Under the pieces are notes generated by a model. The model made no database searches, was not told the origin of the DNA, and worked only from the letters and a program-made list of their open reading frames with translations. Positions 4,347-58,288 of a stretch of 64,000 nt of DNA are shown piece after piece. Every line of letters starts with the position of its first letter. The stretch's first letter is position 1. The translations under genes were made by a program, and so were the position numbers. Source of the stretch: Candidatus Levyibacteriota bacterium (GTDB lineage Bacteria > Patescibacteriota > Microgenomatia > Levybacterales > UBA12049); the NCBI GenBank assembly GCA_030651475.1, contig JAUSEW010000027.1, positions 173,614 to 237,613 on the forward strand, in the 5' to 3' direction.

Positions 4347-7019
<2,673 letters not shown>

Positions 7020-52249: not shown

Positions 52250-52273
52250 GGCTTTAGCAGTGTAGCATATTTG

Positions 52274-52347
52274 TAGCCCCTACCGGATTCGAACCGGTGA
52301 TTCTCTGGCTGAAAACCAGATGTCCTAGGCCACTAGACGAAGGGGCC
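52274..52347 (-). tRNA. tRNA-Glu (anticodon TTC)
   Basis: Reverse complement folds: acceptor GGCCCCT/AGGGGCT, anticodon stem TCTGG/CCAGA with loop TTTTCAG, T loop TTCGAAT. Confidence 0.8.
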
Positions 52348-53193: not shown

Positions 53194-53265
53194 GGTCCGG
53201 TAGCTCAGTGGTAGAGCAGGAGCCTTTTAAGCTCTTGGTCCTGGGTTCGAATCCCAGCCGGATCA
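53194..53265 (+). tRNA. tRNA-Lys (anticodon TTT)
   Basis: Cloverleaf: acceptor GGTCCGG/CCGGATC, anticodon stem GGAGC/GCTCT with loop CTTTTAA, T loop TTCGAAT. Confidence 0.8.
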
Positions 53266-53299
53266 CTGCGTCGTTTTGCTCCTCCCCTTCGGCTAATTC

Positions 53300-54289
53300 T
53301 TAAGGTAAGAATTTAAGCGCGTTAGGAAGATTGGGGGATATATAGGTGGTTATTGTATCTCGCAATTCTTTGAGAGATTTCGATAACATTATTTTTTCCC
53401 GTAAGGAAACTGCGCCGGAAAAATTATTGACATACGTCTTGCAAAATTTTTTCAAAGTAGCAGGATTCTTGCTTTCTCCCCATGTTTTTGAAAATAAATC
53501 AATGTGTTTTAGATAAAGATTTAATCTTTCTTTGACCACAATATCTTCAAGCTTCACCGAAGAATTAAATAACCAAGGATTTGCGAAAATTCCCGTACCG
53601 ATCATATAACCATCGCATCCATATAGCTTATGTTTTTCCTTAACTTCTGCAAGAGACTTAATATCGCCATTCCCTATGATGAAAGTTTTCGGAGCAATTT
53701 TATTTCTTAATTCCATAATCTTCGGCATCAACTCCCAATGGGCCGGTACTTTGGATAATTCCCGTACGGTTCGTAAATGAATACTAATCGCAGATAAATC
53801 TTGCTTAAGGAGAAAACCAATCCATTCTTCGATGTCTTCAGCATGAAAACCTATGCGCGTTTTGACACTTACAGGCAGTCCGTCTGCGCCTTTCTTGGCC
53901 GCCTGAATAATTTTTTGGGCAAGATTTGGATTTTTGATTAATCCGGCACAAGCTCCATCCCTAATAACTGCTCTGTCCGGACAGCCCATATTTATATCTA
54001 TTCCTGCAAAACCAAGTTTTCTTATATATTGCGCAACTTTACGAAAACTGTCCGGCTTAACTCCCCAAATTTGCGCGACAATAGGCTGTTCATTGCGAAC
54101 ATATTTCAAACGTTCTGCTACTACCTTTTTCCCTGCAGATAATAATCCTTCGCAATTTACGAATTCGGTAAAAAACACATCGGGCCGTCCGATACTATTA
54201 ATTATTTGGCGGAAAACCGTATCGGTTACTCCGTCCATCGGCGCCAAAACAGTAAAAGGTTTAGAAAGCTTCTTCCAAAAATTTCCCAT
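53300..54289 (-). CDS. tRNA-dihydrouridine synthase. Start at MGNFWKK
   Basis: FTVLAPMDGVTDTVFRQII. Catalytic Cys in INMGCP. FMN-binding TIM barrel. Confidence 0.85.
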   Translation of the reverse strand: MGNFWKKLSKPFTVLAPMDGVTDTVFRQIINSIGRPDVFFTEFVNCEGLLSAGKKVVAERLKYVRNEQPIVAQIWGVKPDSFRKVAQYIRKLGFAGIDINMGCPDRAVIRDGACAGLIKNPNLAQKIIQAAKKGADGLPVSVKTRIGFHAEDIEEWIGFLLKQDLSAISIHLRTVRELSKVPAHWELMPKIMELRNKIAPKTFIIGNGDIKSLAEVKEKHKLYGCDGYMIGTGIFANPWLFNSSVKLEDIVVKERLNLYLKHIDLFSKTWGESKNPATLKKFCKTYVNNFSGAVSLREKIMLSKSLKELRDTITTYISPNLPNALKFLP

Positions 54290-54317: not shown

Positions 54318-55835
54318 ATGAGATTTATTGATAATTTCCTGGACAGAATAACCATGTACCGCCTGGTACTATATTATCTCATCGCGCTTCTTTTTAACGC
54401 CGCTGTGCTTAGTCTTTTCGGAATTCTATCTTTCTCTGTATTCTCAATTATTTTTTCGGTAGCAATTCTTGTAACCGTATCCTGGATAACCAATAAAATA
54501 TTTGCCAAAATATTTAATGCGCCGACCAATGTTGAATCCGTTTATATCTCTGCCCTTATCCTGACGCTTATCATCACCCCCAGTCAATCCATTCAAGGAG
54601 CTGCATATCTAGGGCTGGCTGGAGTTTTGGCAATGGCGTCAAAATATATTCTGGCAATTAATAAAAAACATATCTTTAATCCAGTGGCAATTGCGGTTTT
54701 CTTAACAGCAGTAGGAACTAACCAATTCGCTTCTTGGTGGGTAGGAAGCTTCGCGATGATACCTTTAACTATTTTAGGAGGATTTCTTATTCTTAAAAAA
54801 GTTCAAAAGGTAAATCTTGCTTTTAGTTTTTTGGCAACGACACTTTTCGTAATCATTACTTTTGCCATTTTTAACGGGAGTAATCTGCTTGCAATTCTTA
54901 ATCAAGCGCTTTTGCATTCAGCGCTTCTTTTCTTTGCATTTGTGATGCTTATTGAACCTTCAACAACTCCTCCGACAAAAGGATTACAGGTTTGGTATGG
55001 AATTATGGTGGGATTATTGTTTTCTCCGCAAGTACATTTCGGAAGCTTGTATTTCACCCCTGAAATGGCATTACTAACTGGCAATATTTTTTCTTACATT
55101 GTCAGCCCCAAACAAAAACTTATTCTTTTCCTTAAAGAAAAAATTCAAATTGCTCCTGATATTTTTGATTTCGTATTTACGCCAAAAAAGAAACTCTCGT
55201 TTGTACCCGGACAGTATGCGGAATGGACATTTGAACATTCGCGCACCGATTCAAGAGGAAACAGAAGATACTTTACCATAGCGTCTTCACCTACGGAAAA
55301 TGATTTGAGATTCGGACTAAAGTTTTATGCCCAAGGAAGCAGTTTCAAGAACGCACTGGTAAATATTAAACCTAATACTCCTGTAGTTGCCTCACAACTT
55401 GCTGGCGATTTCACTTTGCCAAAAGACCCGAAACAAAAACTTGTTTTTATAGCCGGCGGGATTGGAATAACTCCATTCCGAAGTATAATCAAATATCTTA
55501 TTGATGTTCACGAAAAACGTGATATTGTCCTTTTGTATTCAGATAAGCAAGTTTCAGAGATCGTTTACAAAGACGTTTTCGACCAAGCGCAAATGGAGCT
55601 TGGGATAAAAACAATTTATGCTTTAACAAGTGAAAATTTGCTCCCGCAAGGTTGGCTGGGAAAAGTCGGAAGAATAGATGGGGAAATGATACGAGGGGAA
55701 ATACCTGATTTTCAGGAACGGATGTTCTACTTGTCCGGTCCGCATTCAATGGTTAACGCGTTTGAAAAAACTTTACTCGATATGGGAATTTTCAAAAGTA
55801 AAATAAAAACCGATTTTTTCCCCGGCTACGCATAG
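54318..55835 (+). CDS. fusion protein with an N-terminal RnfD/NqrB-like polytopic membrane domain and a C-terminal ferredoxin-NADP-reductase-like FAD/NAD(P)-binding domain
   Basis: Membrane part of about 330 aa with an FNPVA motif. C-terminal RRYFTIASSP (RxYS FAD motif), GGIGITPFRS (NAD(P) motif), and a terminal aromatic FFPGYA. Confidence 0.6.
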   Translation: MRFIDNFLDRITMYRLVLYYLIALLFNAAVLSLFGILSFSVFSIIFSVAILVTVSWITNKIFAKIFNAPTNVESVYISALILTLIITPSQSIQGAAYLGLAGVLAMASKYILAINKKHIFNPVAIAVFLTAVGTNQFASWWVGSFAMIPLTILGGFLILKKVQKVNLAFSFLATTLFVIITFAIFNGSNLLAILNQALLHSALLFFAFVMLIEPSTTPPTKGLQVWYGIMVGLLFSPQVHFGSLYFTPEMALLTGNIFSYIVSPKQKLILFLKEKIQIAPDIFDFVFTPKKKLSFVPGQYAEWTFEHSRTDSRGNRRYFTIASSPTENDLRFGLKFYAQGSSFKNALVNIKPNTPVVASQLAGDFTLPKDPKQKLVFIAGGIGITPFRSIIKYLIDVHEKRDIVLLYSDKQVSEIVYKDVFDQAQMELGIKTIYALTSENLLPQGWLGKVGRIDGEMIRGEIPDFQERMFYLSGPHSMVNAFEKTLLDMGIFKSKIKTDFFPGYA

Positions 55836-55849
55836 TTCTACTATGGAAT

Positions 55850-56479
55850 TTATTCAAGAGAAATATCAATACCTCTTAAAAGATCGTTGAATTTGTCTTT
55901 AGCTATTTTTTCCCGCTCTTTTTCGTCTGGAGCCAATTTTATTGGCAAATCACTACCCACCTCAAAGAACTTAAAGGTTCTTAAAAAAGCAGGATGTGCT
56001 TCGGGAGTTACATGGGATTGGATGTTGCCTTCTACGACTTGCAATATTGTTATCTTCATCTCCCTAATCCTTTTCATGAATTCTTCTTGCGTCATTGGCG
56101 GCTTAAGCATTCCTTTTCTTGAAAATCCCTTTGGCAAAAAAGGTGATTTAGTTCTATCACGCATCCAAGCAAAAACAACTAAAGCGTGACGAGTTGCTTC
56201 TCTTGTCTCCAAATCAACATCTGTATGGGATTGCTTTTGATCATCGTAGAGAACGGCTGATCCTTCTTCTGCTCTCGTTAGGTAAGATTGAAAAGTGTAG
56301 TCACGAAAATATTCTTTTGCTGGCCCAGGCTTACGAATTACACCTTTATTAAAAAGTTCTAGGAGAGCATTCGTCTGTTTTACAACAATCCAAGGAGATT
56401 TCTCAAACTCCCTATAACCAATTATTGGCTGAAACTCCGGGGATTGAGGCGCAGAAAATCTTCTTTCAAATTCTAGCAT
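55850..56479 (-). CDS. hypothetical protein C (209 aa) in the elevated-GC block
   Basis: ORF with its own upstream TTGACA element and the 14-bp palindrome. No motif. Confidence 0.4.
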   Translation of the reverse strand: MLEFERRFSAPQSPEFQPIIGYREFEKSPWIVVKQTNALLELFNKGVIRKPGPAKEYFRDYTFQSYLTRAEEGSAVLYDDQKQSHTDVDLETREATRHALVVFAWMRDRTKSPFLPKGFSRKGMLKPPMTQEEFMKRIREMKITILQVVEGNIQSHVTPEAHPAFLRTFKFFEVGSDLPIKLAPDEKEREKIAKDKFNDLLRGIDISLE

Positions 56480-56581
56480 ATTGTTTTAACAACGTGCCTT
56501 ATGTATTGCGCAATACTATATTATAAAAAATTATCTGTCAAGGTAAAAACTTCGGAAAAAACCGCATGGCGGAAATGTAAT

Positions 56582-57286
56582 TTATTTCGTAAAACTATCT
56601 GATCCTACAACCATAGTTTTAAATTCCGTTAGAGTGTCTATTGCCCCGCTAAGAGACCTAAACCCAACTACGCTTGATCGAACCGGATCAATTTGAGATA
56701 TTCCCCTGATAGGTAACTCTCTAGGCCCCTCCGGGAATTTCCCCCTTCTCCACAAAGGATTTGAATTTTCATTAAACGCCAAAGTTGCAGATGCCAGGAC
56801 TTCCCCTCCCAATGCGACAAGCGGAATTATAGTCCAGCCAATTCTTGAAAGCGGAACTTTAGAGGCTATTATGCCAAATTCCACTTTATTCCTTTTGCTT
56901 TCGTCCATATACCATCGTTCTTCTTCTCTCGGATTTTGCCAGTGGATGGAAGTTGTTCCCGAAGGCCACATTTTTATTTCTATTGCCAAATCTCCATAAG
57001 AACCACTCCATTTCAGGCAACATTGATTAGATTCGCTCCTTTGGATGTATTTCTTGCCGAGACCGAATAATTTTCTAGACAAAAACTGACCTGTTGGTAA
57101 AATATCCTGATTGCTTATCTGTTCTTTTAAGCGATAGTCTTCTATATATACTATCTTATTTCCTGCTGTTTCTACCATAGGCGTTAAATTGGATTTATAC
57201 TTGCGGGGCTTTATTTGTATCTGTTTGCTTCCATAACCTAAAAATCCTACTGGCAAGTGTCCTACTTTGTTCACCCGTAAAAACAC
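56582..57286 (-). CDS. hypothetical protein B. The ORF overlaps protein A by 92 nt in another frame. An alternative start at MVETAGNK (57178) removes the overlap
   Basis: ORF. A hydrophobic segment IIPLVALGGEVLASATLAF is present. No motif. Confidence 0.35.
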   Translation of the reverse strand: MFLRVNKVGHLPVGFLGYGSKQIQIKPRKYKSNLTPMVETAGNKIVYIEDYRLKEQISNQDILPTGQFLSRKLFGLGKKYIQRSESNQCCLKWSGSYGDLAIEIKMWPSGTTSIHWQNPREEERWYMDESKRNKVEFGIIASKVPLSRIGWTIIPLVALGGEVLASATLAFNENSNPLWRRGKFPEGPRELPIRGISQIDPVRSSVVGFRSLSGAIDTLTEFKTMVVGSDSFTK

Positions 57287-57803
57287 TCTCGCCTAAAGGC
57301 CGTACTTTTATATCTGGGCGTATTTTTTCTCCGGTTGCATACGACACGTGTTCGTCTTTATTGTAGCTTGGCGGATAAACAATCATACGATTAATAGCAA
57401 TTACCACTTTATTTTCTCCTTCAGGACGCTTCGTAGCAACAACTTCGCTTAAGAAAGACTCTGTAGTTTCCGAACGTACAGCCTCACGTTCACGTTCCGG
57501 AAGTGCTTCCCATTTAGGACAAATATATACATTGGCTTCTTTGGTTCTATGGTATTTTTGTAAATATATAGCATGCCTGCTTTCTTCGTCCACTAGATAT
57601 GGCGTCCTTATCGCAGGACCCTCTTGAGTCCTTTCCATTAGGGCAATCATGCTATGTACGAAGTATTCGAAATCAAGAGGAGTGAGTTCTGTTTTCCTAA
57701 GTAAAATTATGCAATCTGCTTCTAATCTTTCCTTGGCCCTTCCAGTTGCCGGCTCAAAACGCATAGCGGATGGCCCCCGCCTAATCTCTGCTGAAGTTGT
57801 CAT
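57195..57803 (-). CDS. hypothetical protein A (202 aa)
   Basis: ORF that is GC-richer than its surroundings. No motif. Confidence 0.35.
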   Translation of the reverse strand: MTTSAEIRRGPSAMRFEPATGRAKERLEADCIILLRKTELTPLDFEYFVHSMIALMERTQEGPAIRTPYLVDEESRHAIYLQKYHRTKEANVYICPKWEALPEREREAVRSETTESFLSEVVATKRPEGENKVVIAINRMIVYPPSYNKDEHVSYATGEKIRPDIKVRPLGESVFTGEQSRTLASRIFRLWKQTDTNKAPQV

Positions 57804-57859
57804 GGGTGGATTTAATCACAATATAGGCCAAAAGTCAATGAATGGGTTGAAATGATACT

Positions 57860-58288
57860 TTGGATTTGGTACGATTTCAATATATGAAAACCGTACTAAG
57901 AAGTATATTCTTTTACTCTTTTTCTTTATTTCTTCTTACTCAAATTATGCAGGGCGTAAGGGTTTCGGGTGATATTACGTCATATATTCTCGGCGGATTT
58001 TTGCTCTTTATTCTGTTTACGATACTAAGACCGATTCTAAATATCATTTCTTTCCCTTTTAATTTAGTAACTTTAGGCATGTTTTCATTTCTAGTAAATG
58101 TAATTATTCTTTATATTCTGACTATTTTTGTTGCCAACATCTCAATTACTTCATTTCTTTTTAAAGGTCTTTCCTTCGCTGGATTCACTATTCCTAAGGT
58201 ATTTATCAGCACATTTTTCGCCTACGTCCTTGCCTCATTTTTCCTATCTGCTATAATAGGTTTCCTAACATGGATAACAAAAAAATAG
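57860..58288 (+). CDS. small 4-TM membrane protein, YvlD/DUF360-like
   Basis: 142 aa, 4 TM. Pattern ILRPILNIISFPFNLVTLGMFSFLVN resembles DUF360. Confidence 0.35.
   Translation: MDLVRFQYMKTVLRSIFFYSFSLFLLTQIMQGVRVSGDITSYILGGFLLFILFTILRPILNIISFPFNLVTLGMFSFLVNVIILYILTIFVANISITSFLFKGLSFAGFTIPKVFISTFFAYVLASFFLSAIIGFLTWITKK

Follow-up and report, generated by a model that had tools for sequence, protein, structure and literature searches.

The question raised by this locus is whether three consecutive genes for unrecognisable proteins, here called A, B and C, make up a single acquired system. They lie in a 64,000-nucleotide stretch of DNA (hereafter the window) on a 253-kb contig of a metagenome-assembled genome (MAG) of Candidatus Levybacteria, a lineage of the Microgenomates within the candidate phyla radiation (CPR). 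The original prediction for this DNA had pointed to a raised GC content and to an apparent overlap between A and B, and had put the block forward as a horizontally acquired, undescribed module such as a defence, toxin or accessory system. Our analysis gives a different answer: the interval is probably a strain-variable islet with three unrelated, lineage-restricted orphans, in which A and B are cassettes exchanged by recombination and the products are putative binding proteins. A, B and C themselves are real, intact and unrelated orphan genes, and the listing of open reading frames (ORFs) places them consecutively on the minus strand, as had been predicted:

57195-57803, minus strand: gene A, an orphan, 202 amino acids, basic (pI 8.5)
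57179-57194, minus strand: spacer between A and B, 16 nt in the window and 16-19 nt in sibling genomes
56582-57178, minus strand: gene B, 198 amino acids, basic (pI 9.1; 9.07 to two decimals), with a longest ORF form at 56582-57286
55850-56479, minus strand: gene C, 209 amino acids

The three proteins are 100% identical to the hypothetical proteins Q7R31_03615 (A), Q7R31_03610 (B) and Q7R31_03605 (C) of a Candidatus Levybacteria MAG. Inspection of A by eye recognised neither a signal peptide nor a transmembrane segment.

The history of A and B was read from the genomes that share them. The order CofD, holin-like gene, A, B is conserved in L001, L002/L017, L018 and L024. A-B is syntenic in five related genomes and is therefore no recent arrival in the window genome; the pair is vertically syntenic within a narrow clade. 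Window proteins were compared with those of the siblings by amino acid identity and by the ratio of nonsynonymous to synonymous divergence (dN/dS; Nei-Gojobori method), and mosaic structure was read from sliding-window alignments. Identity to the siblings is 97% for the mechanosensitive (MS) channel, 92-97% for SecG, 91-96% for the holin-like protein, 91-94% for CofD, 84-89% for SBP5, 81-88% for Dus, 72-77% for an RnfD/NqrB-like and FNR-like fusion protein (77% in L002, 72% in L024), 57-86% for A and 32-74% for B. In the flanking genes dS is 0.5-0.8 and dN/dS 0.03-0.15, and a dS of this size identifies the genomes as sibling species rather than near-identical strains. Gene A has a dS like that of the flanks and a dN/dS of 0.22-0.62, and it occurs as two allele classes about 58% identical to each other. 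B occurs as three classes, B1, B2 and B3, which are 31-47% identical. Between B1 and B2, dS is saturated (1.4-1.8) and dN is ~0.7; B2 is 31% identical to B1, and homologs from other Microgenomates lineages, at 20-29%, are barely further away.

The two genes have changed partners. L001 and L024 are 94-100% identical at the nucleotide level from SBP5 through CofD, 68-76% identical exactly across A, and 92-97% identical across B. The A gene of L001 is 89-94% identical in nucleotides to that of the window, a level that these two genomes reach only across A, and the A gene of L024 is 95-96% identical to that of L002. All four of the four possible class combinations occur (A1B1 in the window, A1B2 in L001, A2B1 in L002, and A2B2 in L018 and L024). 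The recombination breakpoints sit at the edges of A and of B, and the DNA just before the B start codon and just after the B stop codon is conserved across the B classes; these conserved borders indicate that the cassettes are bounded by gene edges. The downstream edge of the B cassette is marked by a short conserved element:

56556-56581, minus strand: conserved sequence ATTACATTTCCGCCATGCGGTTTTTT, directly 3' of the B stop codon, with a 4-bp GC hairpin (56562-56572) and a T-run

This element is kept in the window, L001 and L024 though their B coding sequences are only ~50% identical. A and B are each subject to allele replacement by recombination.

The two genes that enclose the block are those that had been described, a redox fusion on one side and a divergent small membrane protein on the other:

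54318-55835, plus strand: RnfD/NqrB-like plus FNR-like fusion gene (family match), convergent with C
57884-58288, plus strand: PF04020 holin-like membrane gene, divergent from A, with CofD/YvcK next

The third gene of the block, C, is a local gene-content difference. At this locus it is present only in the window genome: L002 and L024 lack it there, and other genes take its place in L001 and L018. The gap between B and the fusion gene holds:

window: C
L002: nothing
L001 and L018: orphan D (164 and 197 amino acids, 40% identical to each other)
L024, L018 and L014: a CDP-alcohol-phosphatidyltransferase-like gene

Orphan D (L001 9307-9801, minus strand; L018 239-832, plus strand) is convergent with B2 and is another fast-diverging gene at the same islet, its copies being only 40% identical where the flanking genes of L001 and L018 are ~85-91% identical at the nucleotide level. 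More distant relatives, whose CofD is 60-64% identical, have RNase HII beside the holin-like gene and none of A, B or C. The word accessory in the original prediction thus holds, in the sense that this is a variable, recombining spot among related genomes.

Beyond the locus, the three families have separate and narrow distributions. Among 5.8 billion proteins A yielded three clusters, and a metagenome scan added only one further locus, from the same Hainich groundwater lineage; all of these belong to a single Levybacteria clade. For B, a set of 1.84 billion proteins held just 14 representatives (E <= 1e-3), from Levybacteria and Roizmanbacteria. This very small Microgenomates family shares the motifs D[IV]LPTGxF[LF]S, ExWxxxE and PSE[LF]P[IV]RRxSxI[DN], and its longer members also have a P[IM]PxSxS...YFP tail and an insert that contains CxxC. 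The C family counts 24 homologs from Levybacteria and Daviesbacteria (43-61% identity; the nearest is 59% identical), in which the motifs FFEVG and GFS are invariant. Outside the A-B clade, in Roizmanbacteria and other Microgenomates, B is solitary and A is absent at every such locus: B stands directly after ftsZ in L027, upstream of a class I aminoacyl-tRNA synthetase gene in L026, and between a peptidase M20 gene and rplA in L021, and B3 in L014 likewise occurs without A. C, too, stands alone in Daviesbacteria and elsewhere, in no fewer than four settings: in one it converges on a Peptidase_S11 gene close to YkuD, in another it follows a methyltransferase gene, in a third it belongs to a cluster with Bro-N, RadC, MazG-like, helicase and PD-(D/E)XK genes, and in a fourth it comes after NUDIX and rhomboid genes. 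The families are also mutually unrelated. BLASTP and hhalign profile comparison of A with B, A with C and B with C gave only insignificant results; the nearest approach to a relationship, a C-terminal alignment of 42-56 columns between B and C, was rejected at E = 0.1-0.17 and a probability below 1%, with differing predicted folds. The idea of one three-gene module falls with these results, since the families are unrelated and B and C each stand alone elsewhere.

Several of these contigs have features of their own. In L027 (3982-7496) the B-family gene begins 3 nt after ftsZ in a murG-ftsA-ftsZ cluster, and downstream of it lie a Y1 (IS200/IS605-type) transposase gene and a bAvd-like gene, for a diversity-generating retroelement accessory protein. 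In L028 (1059-9642) the C-family gene is co-oriented with Bro-N, RadC, MazG-like, SLFN-like helicase, helix-turn-helix and PD-(D/E)XK genes, a cluster that resembles a mobile-element or defence-type neighbourhood, unlike the other contexts of C. The gene next to B3 in L014 (859-1983, plus strand) encodes 374 amino acids with an N-terminal hydrophobic segment, the sequence HELTH (HExxH) and a weak Peptidase_M90 match, and may encode a secreted or membrane-anchored metalloprotease. L018 (CAYPUE010000021.1) is labelled as an uncultured Gammaproteobacteria bacterium, yet it carries A and B, and its CofD, SecG, SBP5 and holin-like proteins are 88-96% identical to those of the Levybacteria window; the contig is probably mis-binned or mislabelled.

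A 92-nt overlap between A and B in different frames had been taken as a possible sign of one frameshifted gene, whether programmed or decaying, of which A and B would be the halves. The overlap arises only when the furthest upstream GTG is taken as the start of B. In the window the B frame is indeed open for 114 nt upstream of its ATG, across the end of A, but the start of B is the ATG at 57178, 16 nt past the TAA stop of A, and the NCBI annotation gives the same 198-residue protein. In the four sibling genomes A and B remain separate ORFs. Stops close the upstream extension of the B frame after 6-36 nt in three of them (L001, L002 and L018); in L018 the frame offset differs, A and B sharing one frame, and the two are still separated by stops. 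The stop codon of A and the ATG of B are conserved in all five genomes, and A recombines as a unit apart from B. A programmed ribosomal frameshift was rejected, as overlapping frames and a shift site are not conserved among homologs, and a single frameshifted or decaying gene is excluded by the separate sibling ORFs, the stops and the existence of B without A. We regard a split gene as extremely improbable.

Base composition had been the other cue, and it too has an ordinary source. The block has a GC content of 39.9% and the window one of 36.9%, which puts the block at the 96th percentile among stretches of its size, so a rise exists but is modest; the stretch singled out at 56641-56760 reaches exactly 50%, a value that places it among the top 0.8% of 120-nt windows, and the flanks, which had been put at roughly 30-38%, measure 38.7% and 36.8%. 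Gene A has a GC content of 0.424, the highest of 59 ORFs, with a GC at third codon positions (GC3) of 0.325 and a codon-usage z of -1.41, obtained from a likelihood test that compares synonymous codon choice with that in the remainder of the window. The corresponding values are 0.404, 0.347 and -0.13 for B and 0.386, 0.300 and -0.59 for C, and across all window ORFs GC averages 0.368 (standard deviation 0.025), GC3 averages 0.309 (0.034) and the z has a standard deviation of 1.18. GC3 and codon-usage z of all three genes thus fall inside the spread of the other 56 ORFs. At codon position 2, A and B have a GC content of ~0.43, where the mean is 0.346. Because GC3 is ordinary, the excess lies in codon positions 1 and 2, that is, in amino acid composition, and because GC3 and synonymous codon usage are native, GC gives no evidence of horizontal acquisition. 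The composition of A, B and C is native, with no sign of recent transfer or foreign origin. The highest-GC 2-kb stretch of the window lies elsewhere, at 4360-6313 (41.0%, above the A-B-C block), centred on a 467-amino-acid ORF at 4757-6160 (GC 0.421).

Searches for the borders of an island were negative as well. No integrase or transposase ORF was found in the neighbourhood of the block, and a search for repeats and tRNAs returned only short, chance-level repeats, the nearest tRNAs being 2.6-3.6 kb off, beyond other genes. These are tRNA-Glu(TTC) at 52273-52347 (minus strand) and tRNA-Lys(TTT) at 53194-53266 (plus strand), which flank the MS-channel-like gene and do not adjoin the islet.

Signals for transcription were called as consensus matches only, and they fit an A-B bicistron with a separately transcribed C:

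57852-57880, minus strand: promoter-like site TTGAAA-17-TATCAT, upstream of A
56513-56547, minus strand: promoter-like sites for C, TTGACA-17-TAGTAT with an overlapping TTTACC-16-TATAAT
55808-55827, minus strand: terminator-like hairpin and T-run downstream of C, within the 3' end of the convergent fusion gene

The TTGACA element between B and C, from which a separate promoter for C had been proposed, was found again: TTGACA-17-TAGTAT lies at 56541-56513, inside the 102-nt spacer between the two genes. The hairpin and T-run after B, also proposed, are present and their sequence is conserved in siblings, but the stem (CCGC-CAT-GCGG followed by T6) has only 4 bp, and its folding energy of -4.4 kcal/mol gives it no advantage over shuffled sequence (z = -0.23). 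A strict terminator scan did not return it, and it is possibly a weak terminator. An Rfam scan of the region gave one sub-threshold match, which we took as chance. A and B are separate cistrons and are probably co-transcribed.

What the three proteins do has to be approached through what they resemble. As had been claimed, they are unrecognisable and belong to undescribed families: A, B and C have zero matches in Pfam, PHROGs and NCBIfam, as have all B- and C-family members in Pfam scans, and none among the PADLOC-DB defence profiles at E up to 1. Among PDB sequences, profile searches with A, B and C found nothing, and viral contigs, a BFVD fold search and tblastn against phages and plasmids gave no relatives. 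The suggestion of a defence or toxin system finds no backing here: nothing from defence systems, toxins, phages or plasmids resembles the three proteins. The structure model of B, built from a 21-sequence alignment (pLDDT 82, pTM 0.78), has two N-terminal helices, eight antiparallel strands in a meander and a long C-terminal helix, and that of C is a generic all-alpha helical bundle. Neither model showed an effector fold such as that of a nuclease or NTPase, and the predicted folds of B and C are uninformative. The model of B weakly resembles p32/MAM33, and porin-like meanders score nearly as well. Like B, the p32/gC1qBP/MAM33 family (PF02330) combines an N-terminal helix, an antiparallel meander sheet of 7-8 strands and a C-terminal helix. 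Membership of B was rejected, given that it has no Pfam or PDB-sequence match and that p32 proteins, which form doughnut-shaped trimers, are strongly acidic, unlike B with its pI of 9.07; in the model the resemblance is architectural and not one of family.

In the explanation that we favour, the interval would be a strain-variable islet in the Candidatus Levybacteria chromosome that holds three lineage-restricted, unrelated orphans. A and B would make up one transcription unit, preceded by the promoter-like site before A and with 16 nt between the two genes, and C would be a separate gene with its own promoter-like site, placed at the junction of B and the fusion gene, where siblings carry nothing or other genes. 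A and B would be intact and under purifying but relaxed selection, each existing as deeply divergent allele cassettes between conserved flanking DNA, and homologous recombination would have exchanged the cassettes independently between sibling species. All three products would be soluble, cytoplasmic, non-enzymatic binding or adaptor proteins, B as a basic beta-meander scaffold with helices and C as a helical bundle. A binding or adaptor role appears the most likely one because no catalytic folds are recognisable. The rapid, cassette-like diversification would come from selection acting where the proteins touch their partners (phage, host or strain-specific ones) and not from a shared three-gene mechanism; the cassette-like divergence suggests selection of this kind on interaction surfaces. 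Several points weigh against this explanation. The binding or adaptor function of A, B and C is something that we infer, and the D, T, S, E and R residues that the short motifs of B conserve could equally mark an active site. The evidence for the A-B unit and for a separate C consists of consensus matches to promoters and terminators. Whole-gene dN/dS is below 1, and the local values of 1.0-1.6 at residues ~76-152 of A come from noisy 30-codon windows of unassessed statistical significance, so diversifying selection is not shown. Relaxed constraint together with ordinary recombination would give much the same picture, and this is a serious rival.

That rival holds that A, B and C are fast-evolving orphans under weak constraint, and that the mosaic is background recombination among co-occurring Levybacteria populations, with no arms race. 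It agrees with whole-gene dN/dS values of 0.2-0.6, with a synonymous divergence of A equal to that of the flanks, with the neighbouring fusion gene being somewhat fast too (72-77% identity), and with the lack of any defence or phage signature. It accounts less well for B1 and B2, which are ~31% identical while the DNA just outside them is conserved, since drift over a dS of ~0.6 is not readily sufficient for such a distance; the coincidence of breakpoints with gene edges also speaks against it, and the invariant motifs of B, kept across orders, indicate functional constraint. We consider it rather unlikely, and serious nonetheless. A further alternative takes the opposite direction and sees in A-B a hitherto undescribed, CPR-specific polymorphic recognition or immunity locus, whose deeply divergent cassettes would be kept in Levybacteria populations by balancing or frequency-dependent selection (phage, host or strain discrimination) and shuffled at their conserved borders; we hold this to be doubtful. 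The version closest to the original prediction, in which A-B, with or without C, would be a new two-gene toxin-antitoxin, toxin-immunity or anti-phage defence system, can call on a small bicistronic pair with a 16-nt spacer, on a hypervariable locus with allelic cassettes, and on the one C homolog that lies among Bro-N, RadC, MazG-like, SLFN-like helicase and PD-(D/E)XK genes. Yet the allele types of A and B reassort freely where cognate toxin and immunity partners should co-vary, which speaks against a matched pair of the toxin-immunity or toxin-antitoxin kind. B standing alone among housekeeping genes (ftsZ, an aminoacyl-tRNA synthetase gene, ribosomal protein genes), with A absent wherever B occurs outside the A-B clade, likewise argues against a dedicated defence island. 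With zero PADLOC, Pfam and PHROG matches, no effector fold such as a nuclease or NTPase in B or C, and no integrase, transposase or flanking repeats nearby, such a system is very unlikely.

Comparison with known systems leads to a similar placement. Type II toxin-antitoxin pairs share with A-B two small, adjacent, co-oriented genes, a short spacer and a variable locus; A-B differs in that the Pfam, NCBIfam and PADLOC scans recognised no toxin or antitoxin (DNA-binding) domain, that partner alleles do not covary, and that B is commonly solitary among housekeeping genes. CPR (Patescibacteria) genomes contain lineage-specific ORFan genes in strain-variable islets, and A, B and C resemble these in having no homologs outside a narrow lineage, in being short and soluble, in a dN/dS above that of their neighbours, and in a presence that varies between siblings at a fixed position. 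Unlike such islets, A and B persist as independently reassorting, divergent allele classes between conserved flanks. Allelic cassettes between conserved flanks are known from competence pherotype loci, bacteriocin-immunity loci and hsdS specificity genes, where, as in A and B, divergence is confined to coding sequence and allele classes recur across backgrounds. A and B have no relation to these in sequence or fold, and no signal peptide, kinase, methylase or bacteriocin partner lies near them.

The enclosing genes deserve a few words of their own. The fusion gene joins an RnfD/NqrB-like membrane domain to FNR-like FAD- and NAD-binding domains. Homologs support the ATG at 54318 as its start, which gives 505 amino acids; the 633-residue ORF from the TTG at 53934 is an artefact that runs into the Dus gene. 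At 72-77% identity to the siblings, it evolves faster than most neighbouring genes. On the other side, an 80-nt divergent region separates A from the holin-like gene, whose start is the ATG at 57884, in agreement with homologs of 134 amino acids, and whose end overlaps the start of CofD by 19 nt. In L002 (1372-1949) the holin-like gene is matched in two pieces whose query ranges overlap and which are separated by ~100 nt of DNA, a pattern that suggests an internal duplication, an insertion or a disruption.

The cues that first drew attention to this block mostly fall away: the frameshift is an artefact, the GC rise is driven by amino acid composition, and the three genes form no unit. The original observation is thus confirmed only in part, and its interpretation is supported in part. 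The finding is largely ordinary for a CPR genome, and its modest interest lies in the independent allelic cassettes of A and B. The locus illustrates cleanly how alleles are replaced as cassettes in an uncultivated lineage of episymbionts: the same slot holds B proteins ~31% identical where neighbouring genes are >90% identical, and A is swapped independently. Two small protein families that had not been catalogued before, B and C, are now defined as well, with conserved motifs and confident structure models. To our knowledge, almost no strain-specific interaction loci have been characterised in Microgenomates; if balancing selection does maintain these cassettes, A and B would be candidates for such functions in this group.

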